A model generated the notes under the pieces. That model made no database searches. It was not told the origin of the DNA and saw only the letters and a program-made list of their open reading frames with translations. From IMG/VR virus record IMGVR_UViG_3300031455_000001, positions 91,346-155,345 of that record: 64,000 nt of DNA, one strand, 5' to 3'. This DNA comes from a virus. The translations under genes were made by a program, and so were the position numbers. Positions 15,368-58,500 of the stretch are shown in pieces; position 1 is the stretch's first letter; every line of letters begins with the position of its first letter.

Positions 15368-17632
15368 TTAAGATGTCTTTACATTAATCTTTTTATTATC
15401 TTCTACTGAATTGAATTTATTAAGCAGTTCATATAAGAAGCTTCTTCTCTCCATATTGGCAAATTTCTTAATTGAATCATTAATTGTTTCTGCTTGACCC
15501 AATACGATCAGGTATTTCGTTGCACGTGAAACACCTGTGTAAATAAGATTGGCATTAAGTTGATACGATGCTGATCTGTCTGTAATTGCAATGACAACTT
15601 TATACTGACTGCCCTGACATTTATGAATAGTCATTGCCCAAGAGTGCATGAGAGTTGTTAGCACTATCTCCCAATCAAGTCTTACGACTATCCCTTCATA
15701 ATCGATAACCAAACATTTTTCTTCTGTATCAATATCAACGATCTTGCCATTATCTCCATTAAATAAATCAGCTTCTCCGCCATTTATCGTCTTAACACCA
15801 TATGTGTTAGAGGTGTTCATAACTAAATCTCCAACTCGATATGTAATTTCGTTTTCTTTCTTGCCAAACTTTTTCTCTTTTTTTAATGAATTTTCTGGAT
15901 TAACAATTGATTGAATGGTTTTATTCATCTCAACCGTTCCTAGTTTGCCTTTGTTCGTAGGAGTTAACAAAACTATATCATCTGAAGAGAATTTTTCTAA
16001 AAGCTTTTTATAGTAGTGGATATATCCATCACGTATATAATTTTGATTCACTAGATGGAATAGGCAGTCATTTCCAATTCGTTTGCGACCTGTTTCATTA
16101 TTATTTAGAAATACAACACCGTTACGAATGTCTGTTGCCACATTCAAGATGCCACCTTTTTCTTGTCTGAATACTTTTTGTAATTGAGAAATTTTAATTA
16201 CTCCACTACGGATGGAGTCGTACAGGAAGCTTCCAACACCAACGCTCGGTAATTGAAAATCATCTCCAACAAATAGAATCTTAGAATTATTGTTCTGAAT
16301 CGCCTTAAACAACTTATCAAGAATAAAAACATCACACATAGATGATTCATCTACAATGATAACGTCTTCATGAATATATTTAACTGCCCCTTCATCGTCA
16401 TCATAAACACCAATTGCTCTATGGATTGTTTGTGCAGGGTGATTGGCATAATTTGCAAGAATTTTAGATGCCTTACCTGTTGGCGAAAGTAAAATAGTGG
16501 TTAAGCTTTTCTTTTTGATTAATTCAAGCAAAATTCTTATTAACCAAGATTTCCCCATTCCACCAGATCCTATTAATAATGAGATATTGTTCTCATTCCA
16601 ATCATGGAAAAACTGTCTTTGTTTTTCTTCTAAGCTAACATTATTCTTTGCACAATAATCATCTAGAAAAACATTTATACACTCCGTTTCAAATGTTTTC
16701 TTTGACTGCAATTTAAATTGAATCATCTTCATCGCTATTCCTTGCTCCGCAAGATAAATATCGTCACGAGTAAACCTACCGTCAAGATTCATAATGCCTT
16801 TTGGGTTGCTGTTTAAAACTTCTTTTATATTATCTTTGCTTATAGCCAGCAAAGCAATACACCTGTTTAAAAGCTGTTTGTCACCCACCCAAGAATGACC
16901 ATTTTTATTCTCTTCTCTAATGGCATAATGAATGCAACTAGTTATTCTGTGAGGCGACAACATATCATATCCGACCGCCTTAGCAATGGCGTCCGCTTTG
17001 AGAAACCCTATACCTTTAATTTCCGTTAATAAATAAGGATTCTGTTCGATCTTCTGGATTACTATTTGAGGACTTTTATATTCTTTAATAAGCTTCTTGA
17101 TCATGTTATATTTTATCCCATATTTAGAAAGAAATATTAAAATCTCACTCATCTCTAGATTAGACAATACTTTATCTCGAAGTTTTTCAAACGTTTTTTC
17201 TCCAAGATTTTTAACTAAGCTATAATCGAACTCTCCCGATTCAATCATTCCTAAGATATCTTGACCTTCTTTATATACTTCAAATATATTTTCTATCTGC
17301 TTTACAGTTAATATTGATTTCAAGAAGTCTTTTTGTTGTTCTACTGTAACTGGCTTATCTCTTCTGATTGAATCAACAATGTAACTTCCTTCATATTGAG
17401 AATTTTTATCAACAGATAGCTTTACAATCCACTCTTCGTTAAGATCCAACCTAGGCATACTGCCTTTAATTGATATATTTCCGTATTTATTTAATTTGAT
17501 TTCAAATTCTGGATTAACCAAATCTTCTTCATTTACACTTGCTCCATATATACCATATGCATCTTCGCTGTTGTAGAAAAGCTCTCTTGTCGCACTGACT
17601 CTGATTTCCAATTGCATCAACTCCTCTGTCAC
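15368..17632 (-). CDS. recD2: RecD2-like SF1B helicase
   Basis: HhH motif GIGFLKAD, Walker A GSGGMGKS, VDESSM, VGDDFQLPSV, FRQ, TIHKCQGSQ, YTGVSRA. Confidence 0.9.
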   Translation of the reverse strand: MTEELMQLEIRVSATRELFYNSEDAYGIYGASVNEEDLVNPEFEIKLNKYGNISIKGSMPRLDLNEEWIVKLSVDKNSQYEGSYIVDSIRRDKPVTVEQQKDFLKSILTVKQIENIFEVYKEGQDILGMIESGEFDYSLVKNLGEKTFEKLRDKVLSNLEMSEILIFLSKYGIKYNMIKKLIKEYKSPQIVIQKIEQNPYLLTEIKGIGFLKADAIAKAVGYDMLSPHRITSCIHYAIREENKNGHSWVGDKQLLNRCIALLAISKDNIKEVLNSNPKGIMNLDGRFTRDDIYLAEQGIAMKMIQFKLQSKKTFETECINVFLDDYCAKNNVSLEEKQRQFFHDWNENNISLLIGSGGMGKSWLIRILLELIKKKSLTTILLSPTGKASKILANYANHPAQTIHRAIGVYDDDEGAVKYIHEDVIIVDESSMCDVFILDKLFKAIQNNNSKILFVGDDFQLPSVGVGSFLYDSIRSGVIKISQLQKVFRQEKGGILNVATDIRNGVVFLNNNETGRKRIGNDCLFHLVNQNYIRDGYIHYYKKLLEKFSSDDIVLLTPTNKGKLGTVEMNKTIQSIVNPENSLKKEKKFGKKENEITYRVGDLVMNTSNTYGVKTINGGEADLFNGDNGKIVDIDTEEKCLVIDYEGIVVRLDWEIVLTTLMHSWAMTIHKCQGSQYKVVIAITDRSASYQLNANLIYTGVSRATKYLIVLGQAETINDSIKKFANMERRSFLYELLNKFNSVEDNKKINVKTS

Positions 17633-17714
17633 CTTTAATATAGTATTATTATATCATAATTTATTGTATCCGTCAAAATATCACACTATATAAAATTATT
17701 TTAAAAAATAGTCA

Positions 17715-17741
17715 ACAAACAGGTTTTAAACACATATAGTA
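17715..17741 (+). promoter_or_regulatory. Sigma-K-like (mother-cell sporulation) promoter
   Basis: AC-16bp-CATATAGTA matches AC-16-CATANNNT; no sigma-A promoter evident on this strand. Confidence 0.4.
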
Positions 17742-17755
17742 AAACTAAGAACAGT

Positions 17756-18604
17756 TTGAAAGGGGTTTTAAAGATGCTTAAAACTGGAGTTATAGCGGTG
17801 GACGATGGTGGTTACTCAACTTGCGTAGTAACTAAGGATAGACAAGAGAAATTCCCATCAATAAAAGGTTCTTATGGGAATAGAACTTTGATCGATGCTA
17901 AAGGAAAGTATGATTACATTGTTGAATATGAAGGTGAAAAGTTTGTAATGGGCACTCTTGCGCAGTACGATTGCAAGTTGCCGATACAGATGCATAGTGA
18001 TTCGAAGCAGAATCTGTTCTTTGATTTATCCGTTCTTGTTGCTATTCATCAATTTGGCTTTTCAACTAACTATCTAGTAACATCTGTTCCTATCGCAATG
18101 CACAGTGAAGAGGAGAAGTTCGGCAGGATAGAAAGACTTGTTGGATCTCATACGATCACAGTTAATGGATATAAAAAAACATTCACCATAATGGAGGCAA
18201 AAGTAGCGCCAGAAACCGCTGTTGCCTTTTGGATCGATGAACCAAGAGGTAAATCGCGTTACATTGATTTAGGATCAAGAACTATTGGGTATGCAACGAC
18301 ATTAAATGAAGATGATGTAACAAGATTTATTGACAGTGAATCTGGGACATTTAAAGGCAAGGGGTTGGAAGCTTTGAACGATGATTATGATCAAAATTCT
18401 TTAGCCGATTATATATGTGGTAGACTGCTTTCCATGTGGGGTTCTGGAGATAATGTATACATTATGGGTGGCGGAGCATTAGATAATGAACTTGTAGATT
18501 TCATTAAAGGTTATTTCTATAAAGCTAAAGTGATTGAAAATCCTCAAATGGCAAATGCAATAGGTATGTATCTTTTGGGTCGAATCGCTTATGACATCTC
18601 TTAA
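17756..18604 (+). CDS. parM: ParM/StbA-family actin-like ATPase
   Basis: Actin phosphate-1 motif AVDDGGYSTC, phosphate-2 motif IDLGSRT, adenosine motif GGGA, ANAIG. Confidence 0.85.
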   Translation: MKGVLKMLKTGVIAVDDGGYSTCVVTKDRQEKFPSIKGSYGNRTLIDAKGKYDYIVEYEGEKFVMGTLAQYDCKLPIQMHSDSKQNLFFDLSVLVAIHQFGFSTNYLVTSVPIAMHSEEEKFGRIERLVGSHTITVNGYKKTFTIMEAKVAPETAVAFWIDEPRGKSRYIDLGSRTIGYATTLNEDDVTRFIDSESGTFKGKGLEALNDDYDQNSLADYICGRLLSMWGSGDNVYIMGGGALDNELVDFIKGYFYKAKVIENPQMANAIGMYLLGRIAYDIS

Positions 18605-18884
18605 GAAAGGAGTAGGGATTATGAGAACAGAAGAAGAGGTTGATAAGTTAATTGAGGGAATGATCGATAGGACAAAAGGGAGGTACATCACTCAGGCTTG
18701 TGCATTCAATAAAACATGCCCTAGACAAATGGACTTACTGAAGAAGGCTTTAATGTCATCTGCCTCCTTCAGTGGCTTAACTAAAGAGATGTTAGCTGTT
18801 CAATTTAGTAGTTCAAGTTCCAATAACAGCATGATTATCCCATCATTTGATAGTGGAAAGAAAAATATTGGGAATTTTATTTAG
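18591..18884 (+). CDS. Putative ParR-like adaptor / DNA-binding protein
   Basis: Small gene overlapping parM; ribbon-helix-like core and disordered C-terminus. Confidence 0.55.
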   Translation: MTSLKKGVGIMRTEEEVDKLIEGMIDRTKGRYITQACAFNKTCPRQMDLLKKALMSSASFSGLTKEMLAVQFSSSSSNNSMIIPSFDSGKKNIGNFI

Positions 18885-19150
18885 TTTTAGACATGTTTTA
18901 AACATATTAACAGTATATATAAATTATGAGAAAACTTTAAGAAAGGTTTAAAACAGTCGGCAAACCCTCAAAAACCAGTGATTCTTCATTAGAAAAGAAG
19001 CTAAGATAGCTAAATTTTAAGACAGGAAGTGTTCAAGAGGGTGTTCAAATTATAATCTGAACACCCAAATCCCTGTTTTCCCCTTATATATCAACGTTTC
19101 TCCACACCTCTATTTTGCCGACTTTATACTTATAAAGGAGTGATAGCTAA

Positions 19151-35002: not shown

Positions 35003-35171
35003 AACTATAATTTTATACAAAAGGTTACAAAAGTGAGTCCATAAGGCTATTTATTATGAAGAGGATTATTTAAAAAGAGCATTGAATGAGACATTTAACC
35101 GTAACTCTCCCTTCGGTTAGATGTTTCACAATGCTCTTTTTTGTTTTTTAACATTTCAGGAAGTGAATATA

Positions 35172-36176
35172 ATGAACCCAAGAAGAAAGACTAAAGAAGA
35201 AATACCTAAGAAAAAATGTACCAACGAGAGTTGCGAAAGAGTAAGAAGCTACACTTTCTTTTATAAAGTAGACAGTCCTATATTTCCAGATGGAATGCTC
35301 AACATATGTAGAGATTGTGTGAGAGATCAAGTAGACATAGAAGATATGGATTCAATTATAGGTTTCCTTAGACAGATCGACAAACCCTTTCATCAAAAGG
35401 AATGGGATAATGCTTTAAAAGCAAAAGGGCATCCTATTGGTGTTTATTTATCTAAGATCAATTCTTTAGTGCAGTATAAGGGTGAAACTTTCAATAACAG
35501 TGATGGATTCAATGGCTTTGGAAAAATTGATTTATCATCTGCTAAAACAAAGGATGAGATCCTTAATTTAAAAGGAGAAAAAATATTTTATTCAGATGAA
35601 CTAGTAGACAAGTGGGGCATCGGATATAAAAAAGAAGAATATCTTAAGATGGAGAAATTCTATCAAGATATGAGATTTACACACGAAATAAATACACCAG
35701 TACATATAGGAAAGTTAATGGAATTAGCTTATCTGCAAATAGAATTAACAAGATTGAGAAAAGAAAGAGCTATCTCTGATTATACAAAGTTAGCGTCTAC
35801 CATTGACAAAATGGAGCAATCATCTGGATTTAGACCTGTTGACCGACAGGGTTTGGATGATGCCACTGGAATGAGAAGCTTTTCTCAGATCTTTGAAGAG
35901 GTTGAAAAAAGAGGATTCAGAATGCCTCCAGTGGTAGAGATTGAAAGAGACATTGTGGATGCAATGATAGTTTCTCTGGGAAATTACTACAATAGAATAG
36001 TTGGCAGGCAGATTCTTGCCGAGATACCAGATGAAATAAAAGAAGAACTTGATGAGTTTTATGAACTAGATGAAACTCCAGTCGAGATAAATGATGAAGA
36101 ATACGAATATTTAGACTTCGGACTGGAAGAAGATTTAGAGCCAGATGAAAATCAAGACAAAGATGAAGATGCATAA
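35172..36176 (+). CDS. Putative terminase small subunit / packaging protein with N-terminal zinc motif
   Basis: Position directly upstream of terL; Cys motif KKC...C...FY...ICRDC; acidic tail. Confidence 0.55.
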   Translation: MNPRRKTKEEIPKKKCTNESCERVRSYTFFYKVDSPIFPDGMLNICRDCVRDQVDIEDMDSIIGFLRQIDKPFHQKEWDNALKAKGHPIGVYLSKINSLVQYKGETFNNSDGFNGFGKIDLSSAKTKDEILNLKGEKIFYSDELVDKWGIGYKKEEYLKMEKFYQDMRFTHEINTPVHIGKLMELAYLQIELTRLRKERAISDYTKLASTIDKMEQSSGFRPVDRQGLDDATGMRSFSQIFEEVEKRGFRMPPVVEIERDIVDAMIVSLGNYYNRIVGRQILAEIPDEIKEELDEFYELDETPVEINDEEYEYLDFGLEEDLEPDENQDKDEDA

Positions 36177-36216: not shown

Positions 36217-38295
36217 ATGTCTTCTAAGTGGAAAAGTTTTGATGATTTAGAAAATATAAAGGGTACAAATTCAAATAAGAATATAAGTGAAATGCTTCCA
36301 GAGTTCGCTGAGATGCTTTCTTATTTTCAAGTTTACCCAGATAGATTTATTGATTACATACTCCCAGAGGATAGCACGTTTAAACTATATCCTTTTCAGC
36401 GAGTATTTCTAAGAATCATGGCTCGATACAAGAAGATTTATTAGTACATCACCGCGACACGGGGAACTTCTAAATCTTTCTTGAATATATTATCAATGTA
36501 TTTGAAATGTATATTCTTCCCTAATATAAAACTGTCGTTAGTTGCTCCACAAAAGGATCAGGCAAGTCAAATTGCTCAGCAAAATATTGAGCAAATTTGG
36601 AACTTTATGCCCCTGTTGCAGAAAGAAATCAAACCAAAAGGAATGACATTTGCAAAGGATTATACTCGTCTTAAGTTTTTAAATGGCAGTATCCTTGACA
36701 TTGTTGTTGCCTCACAAGGTTCGCGTGGACTTCGTAGGCACGGATTATCATTCGAAGAAATCTGCCAGATGGAAAAACATAGAGAAGTGATTGGCGAGGT
36801 TTTACTACCATTACTAGCTAATAATCGCAAAGGTGCAGATGGTAAAGTTTCAAAGCACGAAATACATAAACAATTAATGTACGTAAAATAAATGCGTCAA
36901 TATATAGTGATATATATTAGAAATCTTGTGAATTGCTAAAAACTCCTTATTGTTTTATATACTACAACGTAACTAGAAATAGTAGGCGTGAATGTTTAAA
37001 AAATATAAAAATCGGACAATCAGCATCCAATCCCCTAAGTTTTATTAGATAAGGGGCAGGTTCAACGACTATTCCAGACATGGAAGTAGGTGTTAAGTAA
37101 CACCGAAGCACAAGACTCTTAAATCATATTTAAGATGAAGATATAGTCTAATCTTATGGGAAACCATAAGCAGTTCTTAGAGAACGGTGCAGTGCTAACG
37201 ACACTGTGCGAATATAAATGAACAACAGCTTCCTCACGACAGTCTTATGCGTGGGAACAATTATATAGTGTCATGCTAGACATGGCAAGAGGTAAAAGCG
37301 CATTTGTTGTCGGAAACGACTTCACATTGCCAGTAATGTTTGAACAATTAGATCCAGATTATATAGATGAGGTTAAGAATGATCCAAGTATGAGTCCACT
37401 GCAATTTGCAAGAGAATACGTGTCCGTCTGGACAGGTAGTAGTGAGAATAGCTTGGTTCAACTTAAAGATCTAGAGAAGTGTCGAGTCCTTACAAAAGCA
37501 GAGTTCAGTGCAGTTAAAAAAGGTGATCATAAATATGTCATATCCGTAGATGTTGCTCGTTCTGAAAGAAAAAAATCAGCAACTACTGCAATTGCGATAT
37601 TTAAAATTTCACCAAGAGGTAATGGAACTTATTACAAACAGCTTGTAAATCTGCACACATATAAAGGAAATATGCATTTTGAAGATCAATCTATATATAT
37701 AAAAGATTTAGTCGAGAAATATGGTGCATCAATGGTATGTGTTGATGGTAACGGTCTTGGTAGAGGTCTTATTGATTATCTTGTGAAAGAAGATAAATAC
37801 AGATCTTATTCAGTTGTTAACGATGATAGTTATGACAAGTATAAGCTTCCAAATTCATTGCCATTGATTTTTAATGTAATGTCAAATACTAAGCAGACAA
37901 ATTCATCTGATATCCATAATAATTTCATGGCTGTTATTTCAAATCATAATTTAAAACTACTCATCTCTGATTCAATTATGAAAGAGAAGATTAAAGGTAG
38001 GACTCAAGAAGATAAAATGGAGAAATTGGAGAAGCTTGCAGAAGAATTGGCTCCCCACATTGAAACTGGATATTTTGTTGATGAAGTTATGAATTTGATA
38101 TATGTAGCAGAAGGAAATAGAACTAAAGTTAAACAGGTTTCTAGAAATATGGACAAGGATAGATATTCAGCAGTGTCCTATGGATTGTGGTACATCTATT
38201 TAGAAGAAGAAAAGAATCAACAAAGAAAGAAACAAACTTTTAATGCTAGAGGAATGATGGCTGTTAAGAAAGCCAAGAATAAAGTTTTCAGTTAA
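36217..38295 (+). CDS. terL: Terminase large subunit; segments 36217-36438, 36445-36884 and 37221-38295 join to ~578 aa
   Basis: LYPFQ, Walker A ATRGTSKS, RGLR, Walker B FEE, coupling motif VTTAS restored by splicing, nuclease motifs SVDVA and KDRYSA. Confidence 0.9.
36885..37220 (+). mobile_element. Group I intron in terL (no ORF)
   Basis: P1 ACGT/GCGT with U-G at the 5' splice site; AATTGCT...AATCAGCAT, TTCAACGACTA and AAGATATAGTC core motifs; terminal G; removal gives YVTTASSRQ in frame. Confidence 0.92.
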
Positions 38296-49590: not shown

Positions 49591-52500
49591 TTGAGCAAAG
49601 GCAGTAATGATTTAAATCTTTTGTTAAAAGCGAAAGTTGTTAAAATTAAAGTTGAATTAGACGGCAAAGGAAGCAATCTTCCTACCCAAGTGAGGAATAT
49701 TTCTAGAAGTCTAATAAAACATCCTGTTAAATTAAAAGTTCAATTAGACGGCAAAATTGGAGATCTTAATAAGCAGGTGAAATTGATCACTAACACTCTT
49801 AATGCAAGCAAAGGTTTTAAACCTATAAAACTTGCAGTTCAGATAGATGTTGCTGGATCAGCAATGAATATCAAGAGTCAGCTTCAAGGTGTTTATAAAA
49901 CTGTAGAAGATTTTAATAGAAAATACGGTGTACAGCTTGACAAGATGCAAAGACAGACAGCGAAAGCTAGTACATTGGCTGTTGGTGCAACAAGTGGAAA
50001 AGTTCCTATGGATGCAGGTGTCGGGAACTTCAACAACATCAAACAATATGTTAATCAATTAAAAGAAGCAGAAAGAATTATGAAATCAAAATTACCAAAA
50101 GGTCAAAGTGGATTATTCAGTTCTTTTGAAATGAAAGATGCACAAGGTAATTTAAAAGGATTCATTGCAACATTAGAAAGAGCTAATGGTGTAGTTGATA
50201 AGGTTCGTTATAACTTCAACAAGGATAAGAACGCATTCCAAGTAATAGATAGAACGACAGCAAATAACACCGCAAAACTGATAGATCAACAACTGAGAAA
50301 ACTTCAAACATTAGAGCGTCAAATTGACACAACTGGAAGACAAGCAGGACAATTCAGAACAGAGTATAACAGGCTTATCACGGCAGGTGCAACTGGAAAC
50401 CTGAACGCCTCTGAGGTAGCTAATTTTAATAATAAGTTAAAAGAATCTATTTCAGTAACTAAGCAAAGAGAACAAGTTGTTAGATCTCTGACCAAAATGC
50501 TAAGAGAAACTCATCACGTAGAAGGTCTTCTAGGTCAAGACAACATCAAAGCAGTGAGAAATTTAGCTAGTAGAGCTACTTCGACCAATGAATTAGCAAG
50601 AGCGCAAGCAGAGCTAAACAGAATGGTTAAGATGCAAGATGCTAATAAAGATATGGGCAGAAGAGAAAAAGCTTTAAGAAAATTAAAAGAGACAATGATG
50701 GAGGTTTCCCGTGTAACTGGAATGGAAGCGTCAACCATTGAGGCTCGTTATGCTCAACTATCTAAAAGTGTAGGTGGCAACTTAGGAAAGATTACGCAGG
50801 AACTTAAGAAATATGAACGCATAGTTCAGAGAGTTTCAGATCAATCCAGAATAAGCAGTCTGCAAGGCGCAGAAGGCAGTATGGTTAATAGCAAAAATCA
50901 ATTCAGCAATAAGAAGATGAATAGTTTAATTGCTAGCGGCGATGTTAATGCGATGAGGCAATACCTCTCTGACACTCAGAAATTAGATATTGCGATGATG
51001 AGAGTAGGTAAAAATGCTAATGGAGTGACTAAGTTAACTGCTCAACTAGTAGGCACAGGGAAAACTGTCAAACAGGTTTCTTTTGAAGTAGATCGACTTA
51101 GTGGAAAACTTAGAAGACTTCCAGACTCGTTAGTTTTTAACCGCAATGCAAATCTTGGTGTTTTTGAACAATTAAAGATTGCGATGGCTCGTGTCCCTGT
51201 ATGGATGGCAGCTATGACAGCATTTTATGGGACTATTAACCTAATTAGAAACATGTCACGTGAGATATTAGAACTAGATAAATCTCTTACAAACTTGCGA
51301 AGAGTAGCAAGTGGAAATATAAACATCGACACAATGTTCTACGGTGCAATTGATCTATCTAAAGAACTTGGTAACAATATTCACGATGTTATGAAATCAG
51401 TAGAAGAATTGGCTCGTACTTTTGGTACTTTCAATGAAAGACAATTGTTAGACATTACTAAAACAGCTACATTGATGTCAAACGTATCTGATTTAAAAGC
51501 AGATGAAGCAACTCAAACATTAGTGGGAACAATGAATGCTTTCAATATTGAAGCATCTGAGTCAATTAGAATTGTAGACGCATTAAACGAGGTTAACATA
51601 TCAGCCTCCTTGTACAGTAATGTATATGTAAAATGGTGTATATCGGTGAAAATCCTATTTTGTAAATATAAATTATTAATCATATTTTTATATTGGGGAC
51701 AATACCGACAGAAACTCTTGAGATTCAAGAGGACTGCTAGAGACTGCCATCACCTGCCCTATTATTAAGTTAAGGGCAAAGGTACAGTCCGACCTTCCGA
51801 AATAACAACAAATGAAACGGAAGAGTTAAATAGAGATATTTAACCGCTATACATAAGTATAGTCAGTAACCTGATTTAAAGGTGAAAGTAACAGAGTGAG
51901 ATAATGACTACGCAATTTCTACTCAACAACTAGCAACAGGATTGAGGAAGTCAGCTTCAACAGCAAAAACTTTCGGTAGACATACATGCCGATTTGCATG
52001 GCGACATGCATTAGATAAATTTAGCCATATCGGTGAAAATCGCAGGGAAAAATAAGCGACAATACCGAGGAAAGATCGATTTAAAATGTGATAAGAACTA
52101 GGGATTGGTTCTTGCGCAGGGTTTTAGTAGACCAATATAGATAAGTCAAAAGAAAGATACTTAACTAAATGCGGACATACATTAATAAGCATTTGGGAGA
52201 AAGATATCTATAAAAATACAGAAAAACTACTAAACTCAATTTTAAATCGGAATCCGTCACGACTATGTTAATTGCAACAGTAATGTTGCAGTTCTACGCT
52301 AGACATCTTTAAATCCAATTTTCAATTAAAGATGAAGATAGAGTCTGAGCTACACACAATAACCTAGAGGTGTAGAGGTAGGCAGAAATGACCTACCCCT
52401 AACAATTTATACTTATTTGTTAGAGTAACAAAACTGGTGTCATTAGAAGAAAATGTCGGACATATTACTGCAATCGGTGCAGTTACTATGGAATCAGGAA

Positions 52501-55500: not shown

Positions 55501-58500
55501 CTGGCGATTTGCAGATTATCTCATCAGAAGCTGATGTGACAGTACAAGCTGTTGATAAAGTTAAGTCTGCATTAGGCAATATCGGTGAGAATCTTGCTGT
55601 AGGAATTGTTACAGAGAAGTTTGGAGAAATAGGCAAACTTTCAGATGATACAAAAGCGAAGGTCGATCTTCTTAGAGACGCTATTGCTTTGATAAATGGA
55701 ATAGGTTTTGGTGGTATCAATAACTTCACTGAAGCACTTGGAAATTTGTCTCACAACTTAGCTTCAGTAAAAGATTATGCAACTGATACTGCTGACGCTC
55801 AAAAAGCTGTTATAGACGCTTTTAGAAGAGTGATGGATGAGACCGCTAAATACAACACATCTCTTGTAAACACTGGAACCAACACTACAAGTGCATGGGA
55901 TAGAATGACTGCCGCAATTGAAGCGTGTATTGCTAGAATCGTAGTGGCAATTGGTAAAAATAGTAAAGCCTTAGACATGATGAAAAAAGATTCAAGTGAT
56001 AGTACAAAAGCTATTGTTGCAGATTTCGACAAAGCTTCAAAACAAGTTGTTCAAAAAGTTGAAAATATGGCTGATAGAATGCGAAACGAATTTAGAGGCG
56101 GACTGAAAGATATAGTCGATCAGGCTGGTAATCTACCTAAGAGAATCGGCGATGCAATCAGTAGGAATATTACTGATGCTTCAAGCGCAATGGATGCTCT
56201 TGCAAAAACTATGGTTAGTCGATTTAAGTCTGAACTAGGTATAAGTGGATCTGGTGGCGGTATGGGCGGAGGCATCGGAGGTCAAGTTGCTAAAGGTCTT
56301 GTAGAAGGTCTTGGTGGAGGAGATATTCAAACAGTTGGTAGAAATGCTTTCAAAGGTTTTGCTGATGGCGCTTTCAACTCTACAGAAGCAATACAAGACT
56401 ATTTAAGGTATGGTCAAGACTTCGCTGGTGCAGGCACGGGAGTATTTGCAGGGATGGCTAGAACTTCTGGTTACGGAATGCGGAGCGATCCATTTACAGG
56501 TCAACAAAGAATGCATAATGGAGTAGATTATGCAGGATCTATCGGTACACCTATCTATGCTAGAACAGGAGGTAAGGTTGTATTCTCTGGATATGGTCAA
56601 AGTGGATCTGGTTATGGTGGATACGGGAACATTGTTGTAGTTCAAGACGGTAGTGGTCTTAACCATATGTATGCTCATAATAGTGCAAATCACGTTAGGC
56701 AAGGACAAACTATCTCACCGCGTCAAAGAATCGCAAGCATGGGTTCAACTGGTAATTCAACTGGATCTCATTTGCATTACGAAGTGAGAAGAAACGGCAG
56801 ATCTATATTCCCAGGATTTTACAATGGTGGTTTCATCAAGAAACGCATGATTGCAGAAGTCGGAGAAGAGGGTGCTGAAGCAATTATCCCATTAATTGCA
56901 AAACGTAGAGCAAGAGGATTGGATCTATGGGAAGAAACAGGAAGCAAACTTGGAATTGATCCAGAACTTATCGAATGGGTGAAAAACACCTCTAGTAAAA
57001 GTAGGAAATCTGGTGGAGTTGCAATGGATGGAGGTCACACTGGTCACGCCCACGCACTTAGTGGTATGGGCGGAGGAGAGAGTGGCGGTGGAGGAGACTC
57101 TGGATCTTCTGGAGTAATGAAACCTTCTGCACCAACATTTGTAGGATCGACAAACATGGATGGAAACTATGTAATGAGTACCCTTGCTCTTGCTGAAAAA
57201 GTTAAAATAAATCAAGAAGAGCGTAAGATGGCAATCTACGATGGAAACATAAGAATAAGAGAAACACAATTGCAAGCACTTACTAAGAACACATTAAAAT
57301 ATCGTGATGCTTTGAAAGGTATAATTTATTATGAAAACTTAAACTTGGCACTTGCTAAGAAAGATTTGGCACAAACCAAGAAGCGTAATTCATGGGTTAA
57401 TACTCGTATTCATCAACTTTCCAAGATAACTAAACACACTGAAAAACAAAGAGAAGAATATAACAAGCTTCAACAAGAATATGATCAAAACATCTCTAAG
57501 ATTAAAGGATTGGAAAACACAATTCAAGGCACAATGAACAGTGTGAGAGAGAGATCTCTTGAGATTTTTACAGACTTTATTAGTGAGATAACTTCAAATT
57601 ATGACAAGGCTTTAAAAGTTATTCAAGATAAGACGGATGATTTAGAGTTTAAGGTTGAGGTATTAGGTTATGTTCAACCAGAAAACAAAAAAGAATTACT
57701 TAACTTATTGAATCAGATTGCTCTTGAGGCTCAGAAGCAACAGGCTAATGAAGGCAAAAGAGTTTCAACATTAACAACTCAATATAACTCAGCAGTGAAA
57801 AAACATGGAAAAAACTCTAGTCAAGCTAAATTCGTTAAAGAAGAATTAGACAAGTCTAAGGAAGCTTACGAAGATTACACAATTGCAGTCCTACGTGCTG
57901 AAAAAGAGATTAAAGACACTAGAGCAGATGTTGCTGATCAAGCAATAAAAGAACTACGTGAATATTACTCCAACATGAAAACTATGGCATCAAATGCTAT
58001 AGACGCTGAAATCAATGAACTGAGAAAAGCTCATGACAAAAAGATGGGTCTATATGATGATGAAATTAAAAAGATCAATGACGTATATGACAAAAAATTA
58101 GATGGCATGAACAAAGAACGTGATGCGGAAAGCTATCAAGAAGACCTAAACGAGAAGAATGATAAAAAATCTGACCTAGTAAATAAAATCGCTCTATTAT
58201 CCAAAGATAACACAACGGCAGGTAGAAAACGTTTAGCAGAAGCTGAGAAAGAATTAGCTGAACTAGACAAGGAGATAAGAGAGTTTACAAAATCTCGTCA
58301 AGATGAGTTGCTTCGCCAAGCAATTGAGGATCAGAAGAATGCTCAAATTGAAGAAATCAATAACAAAAAAGAGACTGAGACAGAAAAGTTAGATATTCAT
58401 GTCGAAGGTCTTGAGTCAGAGAAAGAAGCTATCAACAAGCAATATGATGATATCTTGAATAATGATAAGTATTGGGCTGAAATGCGTAATACCGCCATTA

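Follow-up and report, generated by a model that had tools for sequence, protein, structure and literature searches.

How can a large terminase subunit (TerL) be made from a terL gene in which a TAG stop codon interrupts the reading frame just upstream of the Walker A motif? The gene lies in a 64,000-nucleotide (nt) window of phage DNA, the whole stretch analysed here, which comprises positions 91,346-155,345 of the IMG/VR record IMGVR_UViG_3300031455_000001. This record is linear, 155,345 nt long and 94% complete according to CheckV, and it represents an uncultured Bacillus-type phage. Coordinates follow the numbering of the window unless given with the name of another sequence. The genome of the window is designated G000 and the terL-locus contigs of its relatives L0xx; the L020 contig is also designated G001 and the L007 contig G003. 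Comparison with these relatives suggests that the interruption, TAT-TAG-TAC, is probably a natural and very short translational bypass (stop-hop) in the only terL gene of the phage.

A six-nucleotide insertion in terL

The window reads AAG AAG ATT TAT TAG TAC ATC ACC GCG ACA CGG GGA ACT TCT AAA TCT at 36430-36477, and the allele string across the site is TATTAGTAC. In the terL frame, positions 36436-36447 are ATT TAT TAG TAC, with the stop between two tyrosine codons. An earlier note on this DNA had described the amber codon as flanked by TAT and TAC, which was confirmed by re-reading of the window sequence. The two 5' open reading frames (ORFs) of terL share one frame, as also stated there; the first is found at 36217..36444 (75 amino acids (aa), TAG at 36442-36444) and is followed by an open frame to 36891. 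Families of terminase large subunits in PHROG match both halves of the gene, and the TerL clade of 36217-38295 is SPbeta YonF-like according to the annotations of relatives. No Pfam family matched either TerL half, a profile search of solved structures with TerL gave nothing significant, and megablast of the window against the phage collection found no close DNA relative. If the stop and one Tyr codon are skipped and a downstream intron is removed, the conceptual join is an ORF of 578 aa with one terminal stop and none internal, which matches the TerL of Bacillus phage FADO (579 aa) with 82% identity over 572 residues. AlphaFold predictions for the N-terminal domain of a relative were of low confidence, with a predicted local distance difference test score of 41.6 from a single sequence and 48.1 from 13 sequences (below 50 in the region of the site), too low to place the amber codon in the beta strand leading into Walker A that the earlier note had proposed.

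An uninterrupted terL with the sequence KKV-YITATRGTSKS is found in the five isolated Bacillus siphophages PK-3, FADO, PJN02, vB_BcoS-136 and 2S-4 (82-88% aa identity). About 17 more distinct relatives lacking the insert were obtained from IMG/VR, JGI metagenomes and three bacterial assemblies (Thermoactinomyces, Halobacillus and a Clostridia metagenome-assembled genome). Across these approximately 22 sequences RYKK(V/I/T)Y(I/L)TATRG is constant in length, down to identities of about 50%, and the window has 6 nt more. The constant length indicates that the window carries a 6-nt insertion and not a nonsense substitution. Two extra sense codons, which according to the earlier note would point to a simple nonsense mutation, were present in none of the aligned relatives. 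The insert consists of the TAG and one flanking Tyr codon, and its register is ambiguous, from 36439-36444 to 36442-36447.

TAG terminates 21 of the 99 ORFs of at least 150 codons in the whole genome. No suppressor tRNA was found among the five tRNAs of the genome (Pro, His, Met, Phe and Gly), none of which has a CUA anticodon. When the ORFs of four related genomes were compared with G000 by tblastn, the terL site was the only internal stop in a well-conserved gene, and no other short frame breaks were found in the genome-wide screen, which otherwise gave intron-sized gaps only. Reassignment of TAG as a sense codon is ruled out, because TAG is a common terminator, only terL is interrupted and a suppressor tRNA was not found. 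A split gene encoding two polypeptides is also ruled out. The first canonical start after the TAG is a TTG at 36481, beyond Walker A, and an independently initiated C-terminal piece would thus be without a P-loop.

In the proposed bypass, Tyr-75 would be decoded at UAU, which brings UAG into the A site. Some of the ribosomes would then continue: their peptidyl-tRNA-Tyr would unpair, the mRNA would slip six bases and the tRNA would re-pair with UAC. Decoding of AUC would follow, giving full-length TerL with the native KKIYITATRGTSKS spacing, and the remaining ribosomes would terminate at UAG. Such a hop from UAU to UAC giving KKIYITATRGTSKS, as the earlier note had suggested, fits all the comparative evidence, that is the relatives without insert, a sister allele of 7 nt, the matched codons and the take-off hairpin in longer alleles.

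Related alleles and endonuclease genes

Alignment of related terL genes for Tyr-stop-Tyr or other matched-codon inserts, a check proposed together with the hop, did recover such inserts, with TAT...TAC in L021 and L069 and ATT...ATT in L073. Altogether, at least nine wild relatives have inserts that begin with a stop, are 4 to 28 nt long and lie within the same seven codons as that of the window; the insert of L020 is separate, at codon 45. The aligned inserts at the site fill four slots within the codons R-Y-K-K-V-Y-I. L021 (IMG/VR 3300025529_000001) reads AAG GTG TAT TAG G TAC ATT, with 7 extra nt at the same site; the ORF downstream is shifted to the +1 frame, with intact flanks on both sides. 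L069 has a 25-nt insert (TAT + 22 nt + TAC) in the sequence GTA TAT TAG CCGAAAGGCTAATAAATAG TAC ATC, and L073/74/75 have a 28-nt insert (ATT + 25 nt + ATT) in the sequence TAC ATT TAG CCGAAAGGCTAAATATAATGAA ATT ACA, which was found in five contigs, three of them from different samples. The 4-nt inserts are those of L068 (GTT TAC TAA C ATC), L070/71 (CGC TAT TGA C CGC AAA), L072 (CGA TAT TAG C AAG), L076 (TAT TAA C AAA), L077/78 (TAC TAA C AAA) and L079 (TAT TGA C AAA). L020 (IMG/VR 3300031466_000058) has 5 extra nt in GAC TAG GC AAG. The L069 contig is a low-coverage contig of 715 nt in which the terL homology ends after SFLNI, from about position 390 onward, possibly through a further insertion or a chimeric assembly; the 25-nt allele therefore rests on L069 together with the homologous hairpin in L073-75. 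A search of the 75-aa stub against a collection of 5.8 billion proteins gave nine other short proteins with 70-84% identity, eight of which are distinct fragments of 72-75 aa that end inside the seven-codon zone, with its first or second Tyr or the Ile as the last residue.

The inserts share several properties. An in-frame stop opens all 11 alleles, right after the last homologous codon (the composition-based chance is 0.07 per allele), and TAA, TAG and TGA are all represented. Every insert of at least 6 nt is flanked by codons of one tRNA, UAU/UAC in three cases (the window, L021 and L069) and AUU/AUU in one (L073). The 25- and 28-nt alleles contain an 8-bp hairpin with a GAAA cap (z -3.0 and -3.3), and its 5' arm includes both the take-off and the stop codon. 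Six distinct alleles have 4-nt inserts and read Tyr-(TAA/TAG/TGA)-C, with C after the stop in 6/6, and their landing triplets AAC, GAC and AGC match tRNA-Tyr only partially; for these alleles a +4 hop is thus not separable from a +1 frameshift with one extra N, D or S. Once the insert columns are taken out of the alignment, all alleles whose downstream sequence can be used give an intact conserved TerL, alignment artefacts aside; L068 and L069, on short contigs, break off or diverge shortly past Walker A. The proportion of synonymous differences (pS) in the insert-bearing lineages is saturated at 0.7-0.9, and that of nonsynonymous differences (pN) is 0.04-0.16.

A deletion of 19 or 18 nt from TAT TAG CCGAAAGGCTAATAAATAG TAC yields exactly TAT TAG TAC, as in the window, or TAT TAG G TAC, as in L021. 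This exact fit makes both short alleles look like shrunken derivatives of the 25-nt hairpin element. There is no evidence that the mini-element is mobile outside terL: a scan of viral contigs with the hairpin 15-mer TAGCCGAAAGGCTAA gave 81 matches, judged to be at about chance level, and none of them resembled a gene break.

Free-standing endonuclease genes are located between terS and terL in 6/10 of the insert-bearing loci and in 0/19 of the loci without insert (Fisher p = 4.4e-4). The gene is of the GIY-YIG type in L021, L073, L076 and L079 and of the LAGLIDADG type in L068 and L072, as assigned by Pfam (GIY-YIG, NUMOD-like, LAGLIDADG_3) above curated cut-offs, PHROG and tblastn; the L021 gene matched a PHROG homing endonuclease with E 1.5e-32. 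Three of these genes are located at L021:1890-2966 and L076:1969-2850 (GIY-YIG) and at L072:747-1559 (LAGLIDADG). The window, L020, L070 and L077 have an insert and no endonuclease gene, the spacer between terS and terL in the window being only 40 nt. Elsewhere in G000 a single GIY-YIG homologue is present, at G000 55908-56258 (outside the window), with 32% identity to the L073 endonuclease over 122 aa.

The linkage suggests immunity of the target site rather than a recoding checkpoint on DNA packaging, an idea put forward earlier that gained no support here. The inserts would break the recognition site of free-standing homing endonucleases settling between terS and terL and leave the protein unchanged. 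The endonuclease gene missing from the window would have been lost, or the immune allele alone would have been acquired by recombination. By analogy with T4 mobA/gene 60, the inserts are most likely retained as endonuclease-immunity alleles.

The sequence upstream of the inserts is also characteristic. For the Arg that precedes the first Tyr, a CGN codon is used by 10/10 alleles with an insert at the site and by 2/20 others (p = 2e-6). Immediately 5' of the insert the window and L021 agree in 26 consecutive nt, which make up the longest identical run in their whole terL alignment. L021 appears mosaic, with pS in comparison with L020 of 0.29 downstream of the site and 0.85 upstream. The shared 5' haplotype and the mosaicism of L021 fit a spread of the inserts by recombination or co-conversion. 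Taken as a whole, there is a somewhat better than even chance that this clade of large Bacillales phages has a natural series of bypass gaps in terL, with 1-25 nt between the codons and with or without a take-off hairpin, that would include the first natural in-frame stop-hop, UAU-UAG-UAC, and would have spread as immunity against at least two endonuclease families.

Alternative explanations and known systems

Several observations weigh against the stop-hop. The window is without a hairpin like that of T4 gene 60. A stem with the arms 36429-36440 and 36471-36483 had been noted around the site and is indeed predicted by minimum free energy (MFE; -15.8 kcal/mol, z -2.65, 1/200 shuffles as good), but it is not kept in L021 (z -0.62) and was not predicted in L021 or in the relatives without insert; it is therefore not a conserved signal and carries little weight. 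A test for take-off stem-loops recovered them in L069 and L073 (z about -3); the window had only a different, long stem and L021 had none. The peptide RIMARYKKIY is conserved in all relatives for protein reasons, and the 3-nt gap is too small for a Shine-Dalgarno sequence. Synthetic stop-hops are inefficient, at about 1%. No fully matched landing codon is available to the 4- and 5-nt alleles, and since +1 or +2 frameshifting is possible in these, a single mechanism may not fit all alleles. Trees of the 5' and 3' parts of terL are short, saturated and poorly resolved, with the insert-bearing lineages scattered, so that long purifying selection with the insert in place is only a possibility and the insert may have one or several independent origins. 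No endonuclease homologue was found by Pfam and tblastn within 6 kb in the window, which makes the immunity rationale indirect here. The exact 6-nt allele, finally, is known from a single metagenomic assembly, and the TAG call is based on this assembly and on near-identical sister alleles in others.

This single occurrence also speaks for two other explanations. The insert could inactivate terL, in which case the phage would be defective in packaging, or would be a phage-plasmid or helper-dependent element with a young terL pseudogene. We regard this as unlikely, because the 578 codons of terL are intact apart from the insert and an internal stop is found in no other conserved gene of the genome. 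At least nine other distinct stop-led alleles, with intact flanks and from unrelated samples, are found in the same seven codons in addition to L020 at codon 45, and several of them recur in independent samples. Decay would maintain neither the matched codons around all inserts of at least 6 nt nor the stop that is kept in all alleles. An artefact of assembly or sequencing, or a minority variant in the consensus, could be suspected also from the many error-like frameshift differences of 1-2 nt in other uncultivated virus genomes (UViGs) of the clade. A heteropolymeric 6-nt insertion is, however, atypical as an error, and L021 and L069, which come from other samples, have TATTAG at the same site; this explanation is very improbable. 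Equally small is the probability that TA-TTAG-TA is the excision footprint of a TA-duplicating element of IS630/Tc1 type, which would concern the origin of the insert only and be compatible with a dead gene as well as with a hop. The window (TA-N4-TA) and L021 (TA-N5-TA) have the required form, but TAT|TAAC|AAA, TAT|TGAC|CGC, GAC|TAGGC|AAG and ATT|TAG...GAA|ATT violate it, no transposase was found near terL, and the deletion of 18 or 19 nt from the 25-nt hairpin element accounts exactly for both short alleles.

The remaining two explanations concern expression of the gene. Low-level readthrough of UAG is general in bacteria, and since the insert of the window is in frame, decoding of the stop by a near-cognate tRNA would result in a full-length TerL lengthened by two residues (Y-X-Y) ahead of Walker A. 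This seems improbable, as no relative varies in length here even at about 50% identity, a suppressor tRNA was not found and TAG is used as a terminator. Neither the 7-nt allele of L021, in which the insert shifts the frame, nor the 25- and 28-nt alleles could be rescued in this way. Removal of the six bases from the RNA, as a micro-intron with the help of a group I ribozyme or by some other editing activity, is given the smallest probability of all. ATT|TATTAG|TAC obeys the rule of splicing after U with a G at the end, and the group I ribozyme that the earlier note had placed 440 nt downstream was verified as a match to RF00028 (78.9 bits). The rule fails, however, in every register of the 7-nt and 4-nt alleles, and no Rfam-detectable group I ribozyme was found in the ten other insert-bearing loci, so that the micro-intron proposed there as an alternative is left unsupported. 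The downstream terL ORF is continuous in several of these loci, splicing has no use for the matched codons or for the leading stop, and 6 nt are too short for a ribozyme core. To our knowledge, no bacterial mechanism excises segments of 4-28 nt.

Efficient translational bypassing has long been based on T4 gene 60 and its homologues. The gap of gene 60 has matched codons, a stop after the take-off codon and a take-off stem-loop with a tetraloop, and protects against MobA; take-off stem-loops of gene 60 have UUCG, UUUG or GNRA tetraloops (bioRxiv 10.1101/2022.08.31.505936). The terL inserts resemble this system (a 50-nt gap, with the MobA element) in being non-coding sequence where an essential phage gene is highly conserved, in the matched take-off and landing codons with UAG directly after take-off, and in the linkage to free-standing endonucleases, including "hit and run" forms without endonuclease such as the window, L020, L070 and L077. 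A tetraloop-capped hairpin holding the take-off and stop codons is shared as well, here in the longer sister alleles only. The differences are that gene 60 encodes a topoisomerase and has no sequence homology to terL of Bacillales-type phages, that the gap of the window is 3 nt between the codons, with neither a Shine-Dalgarno sequence in the gap nor a hairpin like that of gene 60, and that MobA is an HNH endonuclease, whereas the genes here are GIY-YIG and LAGLIDADG and lie upstream of the whole terL instead of splitting the target. Bypassing has been shown for gene 60 and is proposed for the terL family.

The geometry of the proposed UAU-UAG-UAC hop is that of the synthetic stop-hops in E. 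coli (Weiss et al. 1987), in which matched codons surround a stop and nine nt specify one amino acid (PMC5009743). Those were engineered reporters of low efficiency, whereas here a natural essential gene is involved, with lengths of 6, 7, 25 and 28 nt; no natural in-frame stop-hop is known according to the same review (PMC5009743). In Streptomyces phage Hau3 the gene for the terminase has 10-nt inserts led by UUA (7 nt in two prophages), a candidate bypass with partial support from mass spectrometry (PMC10732093). These are likewise short frame-disrupting terL inserts at invariant protein junctions, where extra residues would not be tolerated and bypass was inferred from alignments, but the trigger is a hungry UUA codon tied to the bldA tRNA of the host, whereas here it would be any of the three stops, with linkage to endonucleases. 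In sequence the terL inserts have nothing in common with gene 60, the synthetic stop-hops or the Hau3 inserts. The "byp" elements of Magnusiomyces capitatus mitochondria (81 instances, cited in PMC5009743) are also numerous short inserts neutralised in translation through matched take-off and landing codons; they are 27-55 nt long, mitochondrial and spread over many genes, whereas the terL inserts are several alleles at one site of one phage gene. The 4-nt alleles, UAY-stop-C, share the stop-then-C context with +1 frameshifting of the prfB type (CUU UGA C) and could make use of it. As its insert is in frame, +1 frameshifting cannot rescue the allele of the window; a slippery P-site codon is absent, as is a Shine-Dalgarno sequence 3 nt upstream.

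Gaps of 4, 5, 6, 7, 25 and 28 nt form a natural series at the terL site, a single conserved position in an essential gene, so that the rules of take-off, landing and hairpin dependence are directly testable in Bacillus. An endonuclease together with an untranslated insert that would break its DNA target without change of the protein extends the idea from T4 to other nuclease families and another gene. Because gene callers split terL into a 75-aa stub and a 5'-truncated ORF without Walker A, annotation pipelines will mislabel such genes as pseudogenes.

Features of the locus and other interruptions

The features of the locus are listed in Table 1. The homologue of the terS-like gene is annotated as a putative small terminase in phage PJN02, and those of L073 and L076 have the Pfam domain YonG_N. 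The group I intron interrupts terL at the junction MYV|TTASSRQSYA, where according to the alignment of homologues the 5' exon ends in T 36884 and the intron in G 37220. L021 has a second terL interruption of about 270-300 nt at L021 ~3870-4180, at QFAR|EYMSIWTG, elsewhere than the intron of the window; no group I match was found in it by Rfam at the gathering threshold.

Table 1. Features of the terS-terL locus in the window.
Feature	Coordinates	Strand	Basis
terS-like gene, directly upstream of terL	35121..36176	+	ORF list; 58-70% identical to the upstream gene in all relatives; phrog_3314 match
terL segment 1a, 75 codons, the last being the proposed take-off TAT (36439-36441)	36217..36441	+	ORF list, alignment; 75-aa fragment in protein database
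26-nt stretch immediately 5' of the insert, identical to L021, includes CGA Arg codon	36410..36435	+	terL alignment
Predicted mRNA stem around the take-off, stop and landing codons, arms 36429-36440 / 36471-36483	36429..36483	+	MFE prediction
In-frame TAG, proposed untranslated gap	36442..36444	+	DNA and protein alignments
Proposed landing codon TAC, same tRNA-Tyr as TAT	36445..36447	+	Sequence; TAT...TAC pair also in L021 and L069
terL segment 1b, Walker A-like ATRGTSKS at 36454-36477, ends at the 5' splice site after T 36884	36445..36884	+	
Group I intron, ORF-less, 336 nt	36885..37220	+	Rfam RF00028 at 36875-37170, 78.9 bits, E 5e-19; boundaries by homologue alignment
terL exon 2, nuclease half, stop codon 38293-38295	37221..38295	+	ORF list, PHROG, alignment

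Interruptions were also seen in other genes of the clade. The UViGs G002 and G003 (L040-L047, L062-L067) are 95-100% identical and have many frameshift differences of 1-2 nt in small ORFs, which are probably sequencing errors in one of the two and call for caution with single-base frame breaks in the clade. In the window, two intron-sized gaps of 302 and 459 nt (about 51598-51899 and 51978-52436) surround a 78-nt match to a tape-measure-like ORF of FADO in tblastn. The homologue of the 728-aa gene of the window (16127-18313, minus strand) is interrupted three times in G001, at G001 4835-9469, by 1236, 824 and 355 nt, and the same contig carries several GIY-YIG and LAGLIDADG homologues. G003 has an insert of 1.1-1.2 kb with a LAGLIDADG homologue at G003 17741-18914, in a gene that is continuous in G000, G002 and FADO; this insert may be an intein or an intron-borne endonuclease.

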